The position numbers and the translations under genes were made by a program. From positions 1 to 42,855 of IMG/VR virus record IMGVR_UViG_3300037461_001664: 42,855 nt of DNA, one strand, 5' to 3'. The notes beneath the pieces are model-generated. The model had not been told where the DNA came from. It saw only the letters and a list, made by a program, of their open reading frames with translations, and did no database searches. Numbering within the stretch: position 1 is the first letter of the stretch; each line of letters starts with the position of its first letter. The DNA comes from a virus. Its lineage: Duplodnaviria > Caudoviricetes. Shown here in pieces: positions 2,393 to 42,855 of this stretch.

Positions 2393-5300
2393 TAATTATT
2401 CACCCTCCCAAGTTCTATATAATCATTGTCTGCCTGAACGAACAATATCAGCACATCATCCAATCCCCCTACCCATTGAGCAGATAAATTGAAATTTCCG
2501 CTATCCCCTATCGTTACTGTGTATGTGTCGGAATTCCCGATGATGTAATAGATTGCTCCAACATCAGGATTATCAAGGTCGGTTATCGTGACTGCGTTTG
2601 CACTTCCTGCATATGTCCAGACATTTGATGCTGATACATCAGGAGTAGCATCATTGTCCGCTATCGTCTTATCTGTCCTCTCTACCTTCGTTCCGTTAAT
2701 ACGTACAATGTCATTATCGAATTCACCATAGATTAATGGTGTTGCTGAATTCGATGATTCGATATACAATTTACGATTTCCAGTTTCAGAATATCCTGCT
2801 GAATCGCCAATACAAATATTATTAGACCCTGCATAATTTGAATATCCAGTAAATGCACCAATGTATGTATTACTGTGTCCGGTTGAATCATTATATGCAG
2901 ACCTGTAACCCATAAATACATTATCCGAACCACTTCTTAAATAATAACCTGATTCGCCACCAACAATTACATTCCCTGTTCCTGTATTTCGTGACATTTT
3001 ATTTAAGTCACCCTGCCCTGCTTCCTTTCCGATAATAACATTTAAATGACCTCCATATTTATATCTCCCTGAACTTTTTCCTATCATTACATTTTCCATG
3101 CCTCTATTAGGATAACCACTATAACTTCCAACGAATGTATTAGATGTTCCAGCATAAGATGCACTCCCAGACTCATGTCCTAAATATGTGTTTTCATTAC
3201 CCGATGAAGTTGAACCTGAAAAAGAACCTACAAACGTATTCTGATATTCTGTTGAGTATTTTCCACTTTCATTCCCGACATAAACATTATCAAAATTCGT
3301 ATTTGTCATTCTCCCTGCTTCACTTCCAATGAACACATTTCTTGTTCCTGTTGTTGTAGTATCACCTGCTTTATACCCAATTATTACATTATTAGTTCCT
3401 GTTAATGATGCAAGACTTCCGACTTCGCCTCCGATTAATACCGAATAATCTGGATTCGATGTATTATCAGAAATATTAACAGTTTTAGATACATTATCAT
3501 AATATGACAATGTATCTGGAACTACCACAGTCGTCATTACTGTACCATCATCGAACTTTATTCCTTTCTCAAAGATAGTTGTGTCGTTCATGGTAATATA
3601 TCCTTCTGTCTGCAATATCGGTGGGATATAGAAACCAAAATAGTTCGCAAGGTTTTCTTCATCTATCCCAAGAGTTGTTTCTCCAGTAACAATGCATAAC
3701 CTTATATTATCTGAACCCTCACACCCTTCTACATACTCATCATAACGTAATGTTATTGTTGGAGGTTCAGCACTTTCACCCATATTTGCATTGGTTATAT
3801 GAATAGTATCATCACCATATAGATAAATCTCTTCAAACCAATAATATCCACCCTCTTCTAATGCTCCACACAATTCAGGTTGATAGTCACATATATAGAA
3901 GTAGAAATCATATCCTTCTTCATCTCCATAGTCGGTTAAATCAAATCCTCCTGTATAAAGAAATTCTGGACAGAGTTCGGTCGTGTCCTTGATGGCAGAA
4001 ATTTCGGTGACTGTTATGTGTGGCATCTCTACCGCATCATACCCTGCTTCTGTCGTGTCGCATTCTACGCATCCATCAGGAACGTAAAAACTTAATACAT
4101 GTTCTCCCTCTGAAAGCAGACCACCATTTATTTCAATAGAGAATGATGTATCACAAACATCATAATTATCTGTTGTATCATTCCGTCCATAAATCATTGT
4201 TTCTGTCAGATAATAAGTTGTATCAAAATCAGTTGATATATAAATCTCAGGGAATCCTATTGGATCTCCAGAAAACCAATCTGCACAGAATCGGGTAAAA
4301 TCCAGTAATGTATCACAAAACAATATGTATGTACTCTCACTCAAGAGTACTGTATCCGAAGGAATAGTCCATGTAATTCCAAAACAATTAACTTCTGGAA
4401 CTGGAAGAATGATAGAGTCTGCATCAAATTCAGTTTCCAATGAGATAAGGGTAGCAGAATCCTGTGTCCACCATGAGTCTATATCACTCAAAGCAGCATA
4501 CTCAAGGGCAATATTGGCAGTATCGCCTTGTACTATAGATTCATATGTCATTATATATCCCTCAATGTCATCGTAAATATATATGTACGGGTAATCCCAA
4601 TATGATAAACCATTAGACCCATCAAAGTATTCCAAACATGGCTGGGTCATATCCTCAGAGAGCAGATAGTACATCCCTTCACCAACATCAATAACCGTAT
4701 CTGCTATTGCATAGGCATGTCTTACGCATTCTGTTTCGATGAGTGTCGTATCGCAGTCAATCGTTTGTGCATGATAATCACTTTTGATTTCTTTCGCTTT
4801 GATGTACGGAATCTCTGCCCAACCACTTTCCCCCACTCCAGTTGACATAAAGGTATTATCCCCAAATAATATCCCGGTTGTTGCATGAATTGTATCTAAT
4901 ACTGAGACTTCCCCGGTAATTGAGAGATCATTGAGGATGGATGATATCGTACCTGTCCAGGCAGTATTCTGTTCTGTTTCATCACCGAAAGTAATGGTAT
5001 TCACCCCTGCAATGTATGGAATGATAGTGGGTGTAGCTTCAAGCGCCGGCACCAAAAACCCGAAGTAGTCCAGGTCCTCGTTAAAATCCCCATCAGATAC
5101 ATAAAGAACAAAGCAGGTTTCTGATTCACAATCGATATAGACTCCTTCTCCGTAATCATTACCAGTGATTGTAGCATCATTCACGGTAAGATGGATAGTA
5201 TCGGTAAGACCATACACATAGATTTCAGGGAGGATTACCGAGTACTCATTCTCCGGATCAATGTATTCTTCACAGAATTGTTCAATCAAAGCCGTGTCAC

Positions 5301-6126: not shown

Positions 6127-8985
6127 TTATTTATTTTTCTTTTCAAGTGCCTGTATCCTTTTTTCATGGTCTTTCAGTACTTCAATAAGGTAGATGCATA
6201 CCTGTCTGTATTTGATCCCCATCACGGCATTGCTGCTGTCATCATAGATCACCAGGTCTTTCAGTCCCATCTGGTCAAACTCTTCAGCTATATATCCCAT
6301 CTCCCAGCGTTCTGTAGTAACATCTTCGTATTGCTTTGGCTCTACCTCGAGGATCTTAGACCAGTAATTATTTGACTTATTATAAGACCGTATGTTTTTC
6401 TTATACCTATCCGATGATGTGGAATAGTAGATCACCCCGTTCGCAGAGTTATACATCATATCTGAATAAGAAGAAGCCGTTCCGTCCAATCCCTGGATAT
6501 CAAGGGTGCCATCCGGGGTTAGGTCATTTAATGATAACCTCCCATCCTCATCCAGCTTCAGGTAATAAGATGCTGATGAAGATTCATCCTGTGACTCTAT
6601 TATTATTTCAGATCCCAATGCTGATCCAATCTCAGCATTGGCATAGATTCCTCCTACGTTACTATATCCCGAGCTTTTGACATAGAATAATAATCCTCCG
6701 ATTTTATCACCGTCAACAGTATTGCTTGGTGACATAGTACTTCCACGGGTATGGCAGAAGTAAACAGAAGGAGCATCATAGTCTATGCTGTTATGACTGA
6801 ATAACCAGAGTGCCGGATTAGACTCCTCAAAGAAATATCTTGAGTACAGATTCTGTATGTCAATAAGATATCCGGGAGCATAAGTGTTAATCCCAATGAA
6901 TCCATCTTTATCAAAGGTTATGAAGGCATCATCAGTTGCCTCATCACCAAGACCAATTGTTAATTTATCATCATCCGAGTTATCAGCACTCATCACCCAT
7001 TGGGATCCACCGGTAATAAGCCAGCTGAGGTTGGCATCACCGGCACCGTCCTGTTCAATGATCATTGTCGGGGTGGTGATACTATTATCCACATAGATAT
7101 CTACCTTAGCATCAGGAGTGTCATCACCAATACCCAGTTCATCCCCGGCATTATCCAGATAGGTCTCGGTACCAGCCCGGGCCCAGTAGTTCGTATATCC
7201 CTGGGATAAAACCCAGTATCTGGTAGCATCCGTGGATGCAGTATCAGTATACGGCTGATAGGTAGAATGAGAATGAGCTGAAACCAGATCATGAGGATAC
7301 ATATAGACCAGTTTATCTGTGGATGTCAATGTCAGTATTGCTGTATCTGCAGCTGTAGCAGTGGTCAGTCCTGATATGAATATATTACCCACTTCAGTAC
7401 TTGATTGCAGCTTCCCAAGATAGACCGCTCCGTTGACATCCGTACTACCTCCAGCGATATAAACATCCCCACCGGTGGGCAACATACCACCTCCGGATGC
7501 CCCACCATAAAGAATAAGATCCCCGCCTTTACTCCCATTACTGGAAGCCCCGGCCTGAATGAAGATATCCTTACCAATCCCTGCAGTAGGGATGGCCATC
7601 AGCCCATTGTTATCTATAAGAAATTGTATATTACCACTTATATTGATCCGCTCGGTAAGTGTGTTGGAGCCAAAAACCACATTCCCGTCAAACCATGAAT
7701 TCCCATTGATATTAAAGGATCCATAACTCGAAGATGTTCCCACACGGATAGTATCGGAATAAAGATCACCAGTGATATCCAGTTCATAATCCGGAGTATT
7801 ATCCTTGATCCCTACATAGCCACTGGGATAATAATAATCGGATCCGGTCACGGTCCAGAGACCGTTAACCTGGTGAGTATGGGTGGTGCCTGATGATGAG
7901 TTTGTGGTCGATGAGGTCAAAGTTGAAGGAGTCCCAAGTGTGATTGTCCCGGTTGATGTGATGGGATTGGAGGAGAAGGACATACCATTACCCTGGCTTA
8001 TTGAGGTGACCGTACCGGCACCATATCCCTGGGATAACACCCAGTATCTGGTAGCATCTGTGGATGCAGTATCAGTATACGGCTGATAGGTGGAATGAGA
8101 ATGAGTATAGGCTGCAAAGTCATCTGAAAGATCATTGCTTGCAACCACATTGCCGTTGCGGACCAGTGCAATCTTACTGGTATTTACTCCCAGACCTGTC
8201 AGTGTAGTAGTACCGGCAATGGTTACATCATCATCAAAGTAAGTGCTGTCATAGAATTTTGTTAATCCCATTACTTTCATTGTGTCAGCATGTATGTAAA
8301 TGCCCCTGGATGCAAAAGTGTTAGAGTTGAAAAAACCGAAAAATATTACTGTATCCAACCCAAATGAGGTTTCATCTACCACACCCAGGTAAAGATATCC
8401 TTCATTATATGGTACCTTAAGTCCTATTCCTTTTGCATTTAGGCCATAAGAGGGTATGCTTATATAATCATCAGCTGCAACAAATCCAAATCCATCATAG
8501 TTCATATTCCAGTCCGTTCCGACAGTAAGCCCTGCCAGGGCTGTACTGGATCCGATAATAACAGAATCAGTGATGTCCTTCTCCAGGATCCAGTTGCCTG
8601 TCTTTCTCCAGGGGATGGAGTCTCCCCAGTTAGCAAGGGGATAGTATCTGAAGAATACTGAGTCATTCTTAATTACCAGGACCGTGTCAGATGAACTTTC
8701 AGTAAGTCCTGTCAGCATCAGGTTCTGACCAATCAAAGTATCGGCTCTGGCATTACCGATTATGTCAAGGGCTTCCCCGGGGCTGCAGGTATTGATACCA
8801 ACACTGCCAGTCACACAGGTAGATTTAAGGAACCGGACATAACTGTTCATAAAAACCGTATCCCTGATCAGGGGTGATAGTGACTCAATCGTATCAAATC
8901 CGGCCTTATAACCCACTATATCCTGGCCAGTAGTCATCAATGGGAAAAGCAATATTGAAAGTATGATATGTTTTATCCTGATCAT
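6127..8985 (-). CDS. Tail fibre-like protein with signal peptide and C-terminal S74-type intramolecular chaperone (952 aa)
   Basis: MIRIKHIILSILLFPLMTTG|Q leader; about five VGIxxxxPxxxLDI repeats; SSDRYKKNI..GYIAEE..IEVLKDHEKRIQALE C-terminus. Confidence 0.85.
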   Translation of the reverse strand: MIRIKHIILSILLFPLMTTGQDIVGYKAGFDTIESLSPLIRDTVFMNSYVRFLKSTCVTGSVGINTCSPGEALDIIGNARADTLIGQNLMLTGLTESSSDTVLVIKNDSVFFRYYPLANWGDSIPWRKTGNWILEKDITDSVIIGSSTALAGLTVGTDWNMNYDGFGFVAADDYISIPSYGLNAKGIGLKVPYNEGYLYLGVVDETSFGLDTVIFFGFFNSNTFASRGIYIHADTMKVMGLTKFYDSTYFDDDVTIAGTTTLTGLGVNTSKIALVRNGNVVASNDLSDDFAAYTHSHSTYQPYTDTASTDATRYWVLSQGYGAGTVTSISQGNGMSFSSNPITSTGTITLGTPSTLTSSTTNSSSGTTHTHQVNGLWTVTGSDYYYPSGYVGIKDNTPDYELDITGDLYSDTIRVGTSSSYGSFNINGNSWFDGNVVFGSNTLTERINISGNIQFLIDNNGLMAIPTAGIGKDIFIQAGASSNGSKGGDLILYGGASGGGMLPTGGDVYIAGGSTDVNGAVYLGKLQSSTEVGNIFISGLTTATAADTAILTLTSTDKLVYMYPHDLVSAHSHSTYQPYTDTASTDATRYWVLSQGYTNYWARAGTETYLDNAGDELGIGDDTPDAKVDIYVDNSITTPTMIIEQDGAGDANLSWLITGGSQWVMSADNSDDDKLTIGLGDEATDDAFITFDKDGFIGINTYAPGYLIDIQNLYSRYFFEESNPALWLFSHNSIDYDAPSVYFCHTRGSTMSPSNTVDGDKIGGLLFYVKSSGYSNVGGIYANAEIGSALGSEIIIESQDESSSASYYLKLDEDGRLSLNDLTPDGTLDIQGLDGTASSYSDMMYNSANGVIYYSTSSDRYKKNIRSYNKSNNYWSKILEVEPKQYEDVTTERWEMGYIAEEFDQMGLKDLVIYDDSSNAVMGIKYRQVCIYLIEVLKDHEKRIQALEKKNK
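7195..7277. repeat. 83-bp direct repeat, copy A
   Basis: Matches 8023-8105 with 3 mismatches; encodes HSHSTYQPYTDTASTDATRYWVLSQGY. Confidence 0.95.
8023..8105. repeat. 83-bp direct repeat, copy B
   Basis: Matches 7195-7277; 828 bp apart, same frame. Confidence 0.95.
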
Positions 8986-32718: not shown

Positions 32719-32925
32719 AACTACCAAAACTACCAACCACATTATCAATACTTTATAAAATATATTTGGTAGTTTTTGGTAGTTTTTAGGGTGTTTTGGT
32801 AGTTTTTGGTAGTTTTTTTAACATATACAACTTCCCTAAATACTACCAAAAACTACCAAAAACTACCAAATTTTAAAGCTATTTTATTAATAATCAATGA
32901 AGTAGTTTTGGTAGTTTTGGTAGTT
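32719..32925. repeat. Iteron-like array (ACTACCAA), putative replication origin
   Basis: About 11-12 copies in four alternating-orientation blocks, 9-10 bp period, AT-rich, directly downstream of the primase gene. Confidence 0.8.
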
Positions 32926-40137: not shown

Positions 40138-40275
40138 ATGGGAAAAGCAAAAACCACACATTACCGACGGGCCGACACCGGTCAGTACACCACCGAAAAA
40201 TATGCAAAAGATCATCCAAGAACGACCGTTAAAGAGACGGATAAGGGTAAACCGAAGCCAACAAAGAAGAAGTAA
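40138..40275 (+). CDS. Small basic protein (45 aa; absent from ORF track)
   Basis: MGKAKTTHYRRADTGQYTTEKYAKDHPRTTVKETDKGKPKPTKKK; 2 nt after the nuclease stop. Confidence 0.7.
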   Translation: MGKAKTTHYRRADTGQYTTEKYAKDHPRTTVKETDKGKPKPTKKK

Positions 40276-40287
40276 CATTCATTCAAT

Positions 40288-40779
40288 ATGAGAGATAAAA
40301 TCTGGTATGAATTGGTAAATACCAAGTTTGGAGAAATTTACCTTTCCAGGTACATAATTCTCCAAAGGAAATTTAAGAAGTATATTCACGTTGTAATACT
40401 TCTAATCTCAGCGATTGGAATCGCCGGATGGAAAATCTGGGAGCCGGTTGCCTGGATCGCATTTGCCGTAATCATCATTATAGAAGTGCTAAATGTTATA
40501 GAAAATCAATGGATCAGATCAAACGAAGACATTGGAAAGCTAATCGCTCTTAGAACCGACTATATAAAATACTTCAATAAAATTGAGAAACTCTGGATAG
40601 ATTATGAGAATAATAAATATTCAGAAGATGATGCATTAAATTTCTTTCATGGGCTTCGTATCAATGACTGGGTCGAAATCGAAAGGCAGGATGATCAATT
40701 AATTATACCGAAGAGTAGAAAATTAATAAAAGAAAGTAATCCTGATACCATTGAATATTTAAAGAGATACCATTCATAA
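40288..40779 (+). CDS. SLATT-like two-TM protein (163 aa)
   Basis: N-terminal helix, two adjacent TM helices, then a long charged helical domain. Confidence 0.6.
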   Translation: MRDKIWYELVNTKFGEIYLSRYIILQRKFKKYIHVVILLISAIGIAGWKIWEPVAWIAFAVIIIIEVLNVIENQWIRSNEDIGKLIALRTDYIKYFNKIEKLWIDYENNKYSEDDALNFFHGLRINDWVEIERQDDQLIIPKSRKLIKESNPDTIEYLKRYHS

Positions 40780-40780
40780 T

Positions 40781-40906
40781 ATGGCAGCTATAAAAAAATC
40801 AACCGGAGCGCCTAAAGTAAAAAAAGGCGCTACTACAATACGGGAAGCCAAGGGCAATGTCCCAAAGATGAAGAATCCGCCGCCACCACCACCTAAGAAG
40901 AAGTAA
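40781..40906 (+). CDS. Lys/Pro-rich peptide (41 aa; absent from ORF track)
   Basis: MAAIKKSTGAPKVKKGATTIREAKGNVPKMKNPPPPPPKKK; starts 1 nt after the upstream stop. Confidence 0.65.
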   Translation: MAAIKKSTGAPKVKKGATTIREAKGNVPKMKNPPPPPPKKK

Positions 40907-41027
40907 TACGCTTAGGAGGCGGGGGAGGATCAGACATTTTAGGAATACCGAAACTGGTACCACAACGGTCACATCTCCGGTCATGAATATCATGTCCCCT
41001 GATGAAGCATATAATTTTATTAATCAT
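40893..41027 (-). CDS. Small Cys/His protein (DUF1660-like) with Pro-rich tail (44 aa)
   Basis: MINKIICFIRGHDIHDRRCDRCGTSFGIPKMSDPPPPPKRITSS; CxxxGH..CxRCG pattern; 26 nt downstream of a late promoter motif. Confidence 0.65.
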   Translation of the reverse strand: MINKIICFIRGHDIHDRRCDRCGTSFGIPKMSDPPPPPKRITSS

Positions 41028-41053
41028 CAATGAGTGGATTAAATAAACAAAGC

Positions 41054-41088
41054 CAAAAGTAGAATTAATAGTTCCATGTAAAAAGGAC
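41054..41088 (-). promoter_or_regulatory. Putative late promoter, antisense to the accessory locus
   Basis: GTCCTTT-N20-TACTTTTG. Confidence 0.7.
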
Positions 41089-41090
41089 TT

Positions 41091-41501
41091 ATGATAGAGA
41101 ATGAATACCAAATCATCGATGATCTGCTTAGATATCTAATCATTGAGAAGCGAAATGTTGCATCCACACTTGAAATAGTCGAATATTTAAATAAAGTAAC
41201 AAATAATAATGAGATTACTTTTTCTATTATAAACCAGGCAGTAAGTCATGATTTAATCAAAGATACAAGGCAAGGATATATATTGACCACTAACGGTTTA
41301 AGGGCGTCTCAAATCGGATTGAAAGAATTTTTAGCAGAGAAAGTTGAACTGAGGTTGTTAGATAAAATAGAAAAGGAATCCAGTATCCGGATGAGTAAAA
41401 AATTTTGGCGCATCAATGTGGCTCAGCTTGTCTGTGTAATACTATCAATATTAATAATAATACTTGGGATCCTAATAGAACAAAAAGTAATACGGTTTTA
41501 A
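41091..41501 (+). CDS. Winged-helix-like protein with C-terminal TM helix (136 aa)
   Basis: DLIKDTRQGYILTTNG wing-like motif; hydrophobic C-terminus. Confidence 0.7.
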   Translation: MIENEYQIIDDLLRYLIIEKRNVASTLEIVEYLNKVTNNNEITFSIINQAVSHDLIKDTRQGYILTTNGLRASQIGLKEFLAEKVELRLLDKIEKESSIRMSKKFWRINVAQLVCVILSILIIILGILIEQKVIRF

Positions 41502-41601
41502 CTTTCATTAATCGCATAATCCTGTTCTGATACTTCGTTTTTAATCTAAGAAACTCCAGATCTGACATAGAGTTATAATCAATTTTCTTGGACATATACA
41601 T
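41413..41601 (-). CDS. Small single-TM protein antisense to 41091-41501 (60-62 aa)
   Basis: Starts 15 nt after a late promoter motif; TM segment VLLFVLLGSQVLLLILIVL. Confidence 0.55.
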   Translation of the reverse strand: MYMSKKIDYNSMSDLEFLRLKTKYQNRIMRLMKVKTVLLFVLLGSQVLLLILIVLHRQAEPH

Positions 41602-41616
41602 TAGATTTTAGGCAAT

Positions 41617-41651
41617 CAAAAATATTAATCTCCCATCTGGCGATAAAGGAC
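41617..41651 (-). promoter_or_regulatory. Putative late promoter, antisense to the accessory locus
   Basis: GTCCTTT-N20-TATTTTTG. Confidence 0.7.
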
Positions 41652-41722
41652 ACAATTAAATAACTTCAAAATTGTAAAAAGTACATTTTGTAAAAAGCAT
41701 GATAACAGCGGATTAACCGATT

Positions 41723-41744
41723 GGTTCGAGTCCCTGCCGGGGAG
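41723..41744 (+). other. attP core: tRNA 3' fragment (possibly tRNA-Asn)
   Basis: GGTTCGAGTCCCTGCCGGGGAG = T-loop, T-stem 3' side, acceptor strand and G73; 117 bp upstream of the integrase. Confidence 0.75.
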
Positions 41745-41861
41745 ACGAATTCTCACTTTCGCCTGATTTAGAAAATGATAGCCATTGAATTTCAGGTAAG
41801 TAAGTAACCGATTTCCCATGATTTCTGGCAGCCGGACTTCAAAATTCCTACAAAATATTTA

Positions 41862-42855
41862 ATGAGTAATATAACAGTCTATCGGAGAGTAAGTTACGTG
41901 CGTAAAGACGGGAAGGCACCAATCTGCCTGATGATGTTTATTGGTGGGAAGAAGCTGGAAATCAATACGAAAGTGCTGGTAGAGGAGTATCATTGGGATG
42001 ATATCAAAAAAATTGTGAAGCCATCACACTCTCATGCCTCTGATTACAATCTGATCATCTCGGATGCCGTGGGAAGATCCAACAGGATCTTTATTAAGTA
42101 CAGGTTGCTTAACCGTACTATTACTCTCACTCAGTTTAAAGCCGAATATAAAAATCCATCTCTGGGAATGGATTTTTATGAGTGGATGTTAAAGGAGATA
42201 CTGGATCGTAAAGGGACAATAGCAAATCATACTATCAATAACCATAAGACAGTCCTTTCTAATCTCATCGAATTTAAAAGCGAACTGACATTCTCTGAGA
42301 TCAATGATGAATTCCTGGATGGCTTTGTGAAGTTCATCCAAAAGAAGCATAACATCAATATAGGAACCCAATATGATAAGATCAAAGTCCTGAAGGCATA
42401 TGTGAATATTGCCCATAAGCGTGGCATGATCGAAAGAAATCCTTTCCTTAACTTCAGGATGAAGAAAGCCAAGAGTAATCCGGTTTGCCTGGATAGCGAT
42501 GAATTGAAGAAATTTATTGAAATGTACCGGAAGGATCCGGATATAACACAGAGCCAGAGAAAGGTTCTCAGACGCTTTCTGTTTGGATGTATGACATCAT
42601 TAAGGTATGGGGATATACTTTCCCTCACTCATGACCAGATCATCTCTGATATCATCGTAAAACATCCCAGCAAGACCAGGAGTATTAACAGGGAGCTGGT
42701 TCAGATCCCTTTATGCAAATCCGCAAAGAAGCTGATAAAGGACGAGAATCCGGTAAGGATCTCCGGACTCGTGTTTAATCCGATCACAGAGCAGACGGTG
42801 AATAAGTATATGAAGGTCCTGGCAAAAAAGAAAAGCATTAAAAAGAACATCACCA
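41862..42855 (+). CDS. int: Tyrosine integrase, N-terminal part (absent from ORF track; ends at 303)
   Basis: Open from ATG 41862: RKDGKAPI arm-binding domain, IERNPF, FLFGCMTSLRYGD. Confidence 0.95.
   Translation, partial: MSNITVYRRVSYVRKDGKAPICLMMFIGGKKLEINTKVLVEEYHWDDIKKIVKPSHSHASDYNLIISDAVGRSNRIFIKYRLLNRTITLTQFKAEYKNPSLGMDFYEWMLKEILDRKGTIANHTINNHKTVLSNLIEFKSELTFSEINDEFLDGFVKFIQKKHNINIGTQYDKIKVLKAYVNIAHKRGMIERNPFLNFRMKKAKSNPVCLDSDELKKFIEMYRKDPDITQSQRKVLRRFLFGCMTSLRYGDILSLTHDQIISDIIVKHPSKTRSINRELVQIPLCKSAKKLIKDENPVRISGLVFNPITEQTVNKYMKVLAKKKSIKKNIT
42729..42855. repeat. Terminal overlap identical to 1-127
   Basis: Exact match. Confidence 0.97.

Follow-up and report, generated by a model that had tools for sequence, protein, structure and literature searches.

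SLATT proteins are predicted pore-forming effectors of defence systems, and the partners described for them are reverse transcriptases or nucleotide signalling (PMC9226505; 10.64898/2026.04.29.721553). The effector candidate of the present phage shares with SLATT_4 (PF18186), as well as with the SLATT proteins of DRT10/UG17, CBASS and RADAR, its size, helix-TM-TM-helix layout and defence-type neighbourhoods, together with a weak profile and structural likeness. It differs in having neither a significant Pfam SLATT match nor, in the neighbourhoods scanned, a fixed SMODS, SLOG or reverse transcriptase partner, the constant partner being a polyproline peptide of about 44 aa. In Pseudomonas phage JBD26, the prophage defence gene tab is accompanied by a neighbouring counter-defence gene of the late programme, anti-Tab, which averts self-targeting (PMC10884400). 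The module would resemble this pair in timing, with a putative late self-antidote beside a putative defence gene. Tab, however, blocks tail assembly and is not known to have a peptide partner, whereas the effector of the module is a putative membrane protein; furthermore, the candidate antidote repeats the motif of the system's own peptide and occurs in chromosomal copies, too (PMC10884400). Compared by position alone, the module, located between repressor region and integrase, does not take the Tab-type place between terminase genes.

A phage antitoxin-like gene without its toxin, such as one provirus (L107) seems to have, finds a counterpart in AdfN versus DarTG1; AdfN is an enzyme (PMC11825919), whereas what is shared here is a linear motif, about 11 residues long, borne by varied scaffolds. 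The small prophage proteins of DUF1660 (PF07874) have the C-x4-H ... C-x2-C pattern in common with the protein encoded opposite the peptide gene, which is distinguished by a C-terminal polyproline motif, by its position facing an effector operon and by the Pfam profile matching none of its 10 members. With type II toxin-antitoxin systems and integron-cassette defences (10.1101/2024.07.02.601686), the module has in common the two-gene operon, the toxin-antitoxin-like loss and often cassette-like surroundings; in contrast to type II systems, its putative toxin comes first and is predicted to be membrane-bound, its putative antitoxin has no recognisable DNA-binding domain, and a third, convergent gene carries the motif. 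No account of an effector-peptide-mimic unit was found in the main texts of the literature searched, motif spellings included; supplements could list the family. The module is real, conserved and apparently undescribed.

The phage genome and the layout of the module

The window, i.e. the whole stretch of 42,855 nucleotides that was analysed, is a single contig whose 127-nt terminal repeat (1-127 and 42729-42855) suggests that the phage genome is probably circular. Its genes for a tyrosine integrase, repressor-like and Cro-like proteins and a primase, together with head, terminase, tape-measure, lysis and tail genes, characterise it as a temperate phage. Almost all genes are located on the minus strand, the plus strand carrying the repressor, an HsdR-N-like endonuclease, the module and the integrase; the module is thus positioned between the repressor region and the integrase, in the phage accessory region. 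A Bacteroidota host is suggested by the 20 genome records of homologues, which belong to Bacteroidota taxa (e.g. Flavobacterium, Fulvivirga, Bacteroidales). A search based on the integrase found no close relatives of the phage, and its late-promoter layout is known from the window alone. Contigs from four sequencing runs yielded scattered pieces, evidence in neither direction.

The whole module is shorter than 800 bp (Table 1), the 41-aa ORF beginning two bases past the 163-aa ORF. The arrangement described in the initial annotation, with a 163-aa gene, a 41-aa peptide and a convergent 44-aa ORF, was recovered at the same places, and so was the 14-nt overlap of the two small ORFs, which runs from stop to stop. 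The shared motif is indeed encoded by separate DNA, at about 40859-40891 on the plus strand and 40946-40914 on the minus strand; the ending quoted for the 44-aa ORF lacked its last four residues. The facing ORF has 44 aa when read from ATG and 72 aa if read from an upstream TTG.

Table 1. Features of the module and its immediate surroundings in the window
Feature	Position	Strand	Basis
SLATT-like protein of 163 aa, predicted to be all-helical with two TM helices; putative membrane effector/toxin	40288-40779	+	ORF, hydropathy, AF2 model, homologues
41-aa basic Pro-rich partner peptide, putative antitoxin, ends GNVPKMKNPPPPPPKKK	40781-40906	+	ORF, linkage, alignment, pN/pS
44-aa convergent ORF, Zn-finger pattern and motif copy (...FGIPKMSDPPPPPKRITSS), putative mimic/antidote	41027-40893 (ATG form)	-	alignment, pN/pS
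GTCCTTT-N24-TTTG element, likely phage late promoter	41054-41088	-	exact copy, position
Imperfect inverted repeat built from both motif-coding stretches	40859-40946	.	by-product of peptide conservation
Neighbouring 136-aa gene, C-terminal hydrophobic segment	41091-41501	+	ORF; context, second unit of similar layout
62-aa ORF overlapping the 3' end of 41091-41501, behind second promoter copy	41413-41601	-	ORF; context
Second exact GTCCTTT-N24-TTTG copy, aimed at accessory region	41617-41651	-	pattern match

Between the endonuclease and the module lies a 45-aa basic ORF (40138-40275, plus strand; MGKAKTTHYRRADTGQY...), which presumably resembles a widespread small-protein family. As a candidate part of the module it was rejected, no such ORF being present upstream among the relatives displayed.

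The membrane protein and its partner peptide

Hydropathy of the 163-aa protein peaks in two segments, roughly residues 28-46 and 52-76, where Kyte-Doolittle 19-mer means reach 1.5 and 2.0, the first segment being only moderately hydrophobic. These segments fit the SLATT layout, in which a pair of neighbouring TM helices is flanked by soluble helical regions at both termini in a chain of about 150-200 aa. An AlphaFold2 model from a 115-sequence alignment has five helices and a pLDDT of 94.5. The HMM search proposed for this protein yielded 631 homologue clusters at E<=0.001 with a profile built from 5 sequences. Neither it nor the two small proteins had a significant match in Pfam, PHROG or NCBIfam, and the annotated phage collection contained no match to the 163-aa protein. 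Foldseek returned nothing at E<=0.001 for the model and VIA gave a best Z of 9.9 among generic helical bundles, neither of which indicates a new fold. SLATT_4 occurs in 12% of the members of its Atlas neighbours, the best structural neighbour there (TM 0.77) being a SLATT_4 cluster below the Atlas naming bar. The SLATT_4 profile matches 1/115 family members (E 0.0057), PADLOC 2TM effector models match at most 4/115, and hhalign of the family against three SLATT_4 proteins gave probabilities of 4.7, 11.4 and 0.4%, a range (0.4-11%) that leaves SLATT membership weak. The designation SLATT-like is fair as a resemblance only, given the lack of a match in Pfam, PHROG or NCBIfam; the protein is best called SLATT-like without being filed as a SLATT member, its links to SLATT being weak but consistent.

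The family is rare, being found in 6/401 Bacteroidota genomes, one of which is the seed and one marginal. Its conserved soluble positions are mostly aromatic (W6, Y18, Y22, Y92, W103, F120 and Y157). Polyproline-binding surfaces are typically aromatic; these residues may equally be core residues.

The downstream region was compared in 69 loci (the window, L001 and L030-L096), six of which were dropped from the peptide count because the gene was cut or fewer than 140 nt followed it. In all 63 usable loci a Pro-rich peptide is encoded directly 3' of the SLATT-like gene (60 by pattern, 2 by eye, 1 frameshifted), in the search of homologue neighbourhoods that the initial annotation had proposed, a facing motif ORF being present in 15/59 loci. 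The peptide has about 44 aa. With few exceptions, such as L001 with 150 nt, it starts about -16 to +41 nt from the stop codon of the effector gene, so that effector and peptide form the tight two-gene operon typical of type II toxin-antitoxin systems. According to the alignment, its conserved part is the C-terminal GxVP[KRT]MxNPPPPPKK, the N-terminal two thirds being freely variable. For 14 motif codons in 51 distinct peptides the pN/pS is 0.26, with an entropy per codon position of 0.40, 0.41 and 1.36. This value and that of the facing gene (0.47) agree with the proposal that both small ORFs are conserved as coding sequences, since purifying selection acts at the codon level in both. Pro-rich peptides with other motifs also trail 4/4 more distant effector homologues, and a distant clade has LPKY[QE]TPPP peptides. 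In L001, a prophage, a different convergent, hydrophobic ORF of 46 aa (3492-3632, minus strand) lies between the effector and peptide genes.

With seven contig-edge loci left out, 55 of the 56 intact effectors are accompanied by an intact peptide and one (L091) by a frameshifted peptide, whereas among six broken effectors four keep the peptide and two have lost both. The putative toxin is thus almost never kept without an intact putative antitoxin (55/56 vs 4/6), in small numbers that sequencing errors may have affected either way. The asymmetry looks like the pattern of toxin-antitoxin pairs, small numbers and possibly erroneous metagenome frameshifts notwithstanding.

Most relatives of the module are chromosomal, a prophage-like setting being seen in few loci. 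A scan of 155 neighbour ORFs from a subset of loci, with no background control, repeatedly encountered genes of the types restriction-modification, GmrSD, HEPN, HNH, TIR, STAND, dynamin, SLATT_5 and nucleotidyltransferase-HepT, interspersed among ordinary genes. No recurring SMODS, SLOG or RT partner was present among these 155, a single RT fragment being found in L034. In a crude, uncontrolled scan, long inverted repeats end 15/55 loci; these resemble cassette recombination sites (attC).

The facing gene, the inverted repeat and the probable late promoter

The facing ORF encodes the pattern C-x4-H-x6/7-C-x2-C (DUF1660-like), followed by FG[VI]P[KR]Mx[ND]PPxPP. Scored in the 59 loci with at least 330 nt downstream, the gene is found in 15 (10 distinct intact, 3 duplicates and 2 broken) and absent in 44, and is dispensable. 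Among the 10 intact proteins H12 and C22 are invariant, while C7 and C19 are kept in 9, and from this Cys/His pattern we infer that the product binds zinc. An Atlas DUF1660 cluster scores 0.89 for it, a lead only. Over the whole ORF its pN/pS is 0.47; for the Zn-finger half, which the inverted repeat does not reach, the value is 0.45, and variation is greatest at third positions. The antisense frame in the same register has a similar pN/pS, as expected, but contains stops in 8/10, the stop-free state of the facing frame partly reflecting how the loci were selected. The stops of both small genes overlap by 4 nt in 6/9 other loci.

Loci with the facing gene are scattered across the effector tree, which fits an old part that has been lost repeatedly, and DNA remnants of the gene above shuffled background were detected in 1/45 loci lacking it (L035). 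In L036, L054, L075, L079, L081, L090 and L105 its ATG and first residues derive from a long inverted repeat that resembles a cassette recombination site, several unrelated repeats supplying them in frame. The complete three-gene set recurs in another phage (L105/L119), recovered by an independent search from the Zn-finger pattern; there, the Zn-finger gene is on the phage main strand and both copies have VPRMENP. The corresponding DNA pattern gave 23 matches, 20 of them unrelated, and among four further loci checked one was L107 again and three were without the motif. In L107, a provirus (72% complete), the Zn-finger gene occurs alone directly behind a tape-measure-like gene (labelled by eye), and the last codons of the peptide (PPPPRKKE-stop) remain on the opposite strand. 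The view of the facing ORF as a mimic made by the phage is borne out in that the same motif follows a Zn-finger pattern, and is not in that the gene is no phage invention: it is part of the module in chromosomal cassette-like loci without the promoter. It appears rather to be an old, optional part of a mobile module, put here behind the phage's own late-type promoter.

A profile of the facing gene matches 31 protein clusters. In two of these (P0164 and P0176) a second Zn-finger-plus-motif unit follows in tandem with a variant motif, PKYPNPP or PEYPDPP, like the LPKY[QE]TPPP of the distant clade; these tandem proteins are possible dual-specificity decoys.

The imperfect inverted repeat noted initially is present, and its fold is weak (z -2.08; 11/200 shuffles fold as well). 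Codons for the same residue are identical in both copies in 18/76 cases within loci versus 212/653 across loci, and in 9/10 loci half or more of the synonymously recoded controls equal or surpass the native fold (97% for the window). Because the codons disagree and recoded controls fold equally, the two peptides are what selection acts on, the inverted repeat being a by-product of two peptide copies, and an RNA hairpin was rejected as the selected feature; the proposed hairpin or RNA-pairing role is not supported by the same two results. Even so, the module would be overlapped by any transcript made late from the minus strand. No significant covariation of motif residues was detected between the copies of a locus (permutation p 0.14, 10 loci), which lends no support to a pairwise tuning of both copies.

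As the initial annotation had it, the 44-aa ORF stands behind an exact copy of the promoter-like element, which ends 26 nt before the ATG. The window has six exact copies of the pattern GTCCTTT-N24-TTTG, every one of them on the minus strand, which bears the late genes, against 0.02 expected and 0/100 shuffles reaching six, and with one mismatch in eight copies against 1.11 expected, these odds being post hoc as the pattern was derived from the window itself. Four exact and two near copies precede late blocks (head, terminase, lysis and tail), while two exact copies point into the accessory region. On account of this position it is likely a phage late promoter, and presumably the 3' box TACTTTTG of the copy facing the module fits the Bacteroidota -7 consensus TAnnTTTG. 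Late control of the candidate counter-defence gene is thereby suggested by the sequence pattern. With at most one mismatch the pattern is located downstream of the module in 2/69 loci and is not conserved with it.

The motif in other phages and the possible working of the module

A pattern for the motif matched 1/401 Bacteroidota genomes, the match being the seed's own module, so that no host core gene of this sample was found to contain the motif. IMG/VR gave 32 matching loci, which represent 25 distinct contexts; five of these were removed, having no ORF or a match that runs antisense to real genes or in another frame, and 20 were kept. The 20 ORFs comprise one module peptide, one orphan Zn-finger gene and 18 other proteins. 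Just before V/I, at a position that the search pattern leaves free, 17 of them have G, S or N, as the module does, and seven of the 20 contain a TM-like segment. One portal-like protein of 507 aa has the motif at its N-terminus, and other motif ORFs are found beside terminase or tail genes; these gene labels, like the Bacteroidota-like assignments of the phages, were made by eye. The effector gene was found within 1.5 kb of the motif ORFs only at the module itself, and it was not found in five whole records, only one of them complete. A longer peptide pattern gave no viral matches. Fusion of the motif to the N-terminus of a portal-like or terminase-small-like protein (again labelled by eye) is seen in L003 (1947-3470), L017 (563-2083) and L151, and the L151 record also carries GTCCTTT-N24-TTTG copies.

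What the sequences show is the order of the genes and their linkage, coding-type conservation in both small ORFs, the motif that these share and, in this phage, a promoter-like element. The locus is a conserved three-gene Bacteroidota module. To the reading that in it a SLATT-like toxic anti-phage effector is restrained by a polyproline peptide and the Zn-finger mimic serves as a second, longer-lived antidote, we give an even chance. In the lysogen, the plus-strand operon would make effector and peptide together; the low-complexity peptide would be short-lived, and the host shut-off caused by an invading phage would free the effector, which might then oligomerise and damage the membrane, leading to abortive infection. 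When the carrier phage itself enters lytic growth, the GTCCTTT-N24-TTTG promoter would drive the mimic, which would occupy the same site and prevent self-targeting, convergent transcription perhaps helping this self-protection. Other phages may have acquired the motif as a decoy against this effector family, either by itself or attached to late proteins and proteins with a membrane anchor.

This antidote reading is favoured by the obligate linkage of the peptide (63/63) with Pro-rich followers in 4/4 distant homologues, by the asymmetric loss (55/56 intact effectors with an intact peptide, 4/6 broken ones keeping it), by third codon positions varying most in both small ORFs, by L105/L119 having all three genes while L107 keeps the Zn-finger gene alone, and by the motif being present in 20 distinct phage ORFs versus 1/401 host genomes. 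A role in defence is further suggested by neighbours that are often restriction, HEPN, HNH, TIR, STAND or dynamin genes, a count without background control. Against it count the dispensability of the Zn-finger gene (absent in 44/59, broken in 2 of the 15) and the fact that most carriers are chromosomal and without the promoter, where a second antidote is hard to account for, as does the missing covariation between the motif copies (p 0.14, 10 loci). The intact effector of L091 with its frameshifted peptide, possibly a sequencing error, counts against the antitoxin role; furthermore, an effector family in 6/401 genomes provides a thin selective force for many phage decoys. A bolder form of the same reading, which is held tentatively and with more doubt than belief, is that a Bacteroidota membrane immune effector is run through VP[KR]MxNPPPPP: the motif would be the whole working part of a labile antitoxin and its own Zn-finger-stabilised opposite-strand copy the off switch, which phages would counter by late-promoter wiring, by theft of the orphan gene or by attaching the 11 residues to portal proteins, membrane-anchored proteins and proteins of the terminase region, tandem copies with two motif variants included.

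The occurrence of the motif in large or late phage proteins (the 507-aa portal-like and terminase-small-like proteins and the neighbours of terminase and tail genes, labelled by eye) could also mean that it binds a third-party host protein engaged by phage late proteins, the peptide being a bait whose displacement fires the effector. A function in phage growth beyond the countering of a family in about 1% of genomes would be explained in this way, but the host partner is hypothetical and effector-carrying phages that make the motif late (the window and L105) would kill themselves, so that this explanation is considered unlikely. Obligate linkage would suit a required subunit as well as an antitoxin. 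The peptide could accordingly be a necessary co-activator, or the effector could sense the motif in phage late proteins, with the Zn-finger product acting as a late trigger (a lysis aid) or a competitive blocker, and 7/20 phage motif ORFs have TM-like segments that would bring them close to a membrane sensor. A trigger role of the motif would, however, turn small stand-alone motif genes and the L107 orphan into liabilities, and the peptide is kept in 4/6 broken-effector loci while an intact effector is almost never without it; activation by the motif is thus quite improbable.

Loss asymmetry and the cassette-site-like inverted repeats that end 15/55 loci in the crude, uncontrolled scan are equally what a toxin-antitoxin pair stabilising a mobile cassette or prophage would leave, with no anti-phage role and the facing gene as a spare antitoxin. 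Such plain addiction, to which we accord little probability, leaves the motif in unrelated phage proteins, the late-operon orphan of L107 and the late-type promoter unaccounted for. Control at the level of RNA, by a hairpin, an antisense RNA or transcriptional interference from the late promoter with the 44-aa ORF incidental, has the slimmest chance: the promoter points into the operon, as the second copy faces the next plus-strand gene, and the fold of the repeat is slightly more stable than that of shuffled sequences (z -2.08), but codons agree less within loci (18/76) than across them (212/653), half or more of the recoded controls fold as well in 9/10 loci, and the Zn-finger half outside the repeat has its own pN/pS of 0.45.

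If the antidote reading is true, a SLATT-like effector would be under peptide-gated control, whereas described SLATT proteins answer nucleotide or cDNA signals, and a function would be assigned to a microprotein family that annotation ignores. Anti-defence would be exerted by an 11-residue linear motif graftable onto many proteins, and such activity would be predicted from sequence for about 20 phage ORFs.

The stretch next to the module (41091-41651) mirrors its layout, with a plus-strand 136-aa gene overlapped by a minus-strand 62-aa ORF behind a promoter copy; the 136-aa gene has no family match in Pfam, PHROG or NCBIfam. Several accessory genes of this phage may have late promoters directed at them. 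Before the integrase, at about 41720-41750, a stretch like a tRNA 3' end (GGTTCGAGTCCC) is likely attP, no whole tRNA being detected in the window by ARAGORN. Repeats of 10 nt, both direct and inverted and made of TTTGGTAGTT units, cluster just past the primase gene (32719-32918) and likely mark the replication origin, and within a tail gene an 83-nt direct repeat occurs with 96% identity at 7195-7277 and 8023-8105.
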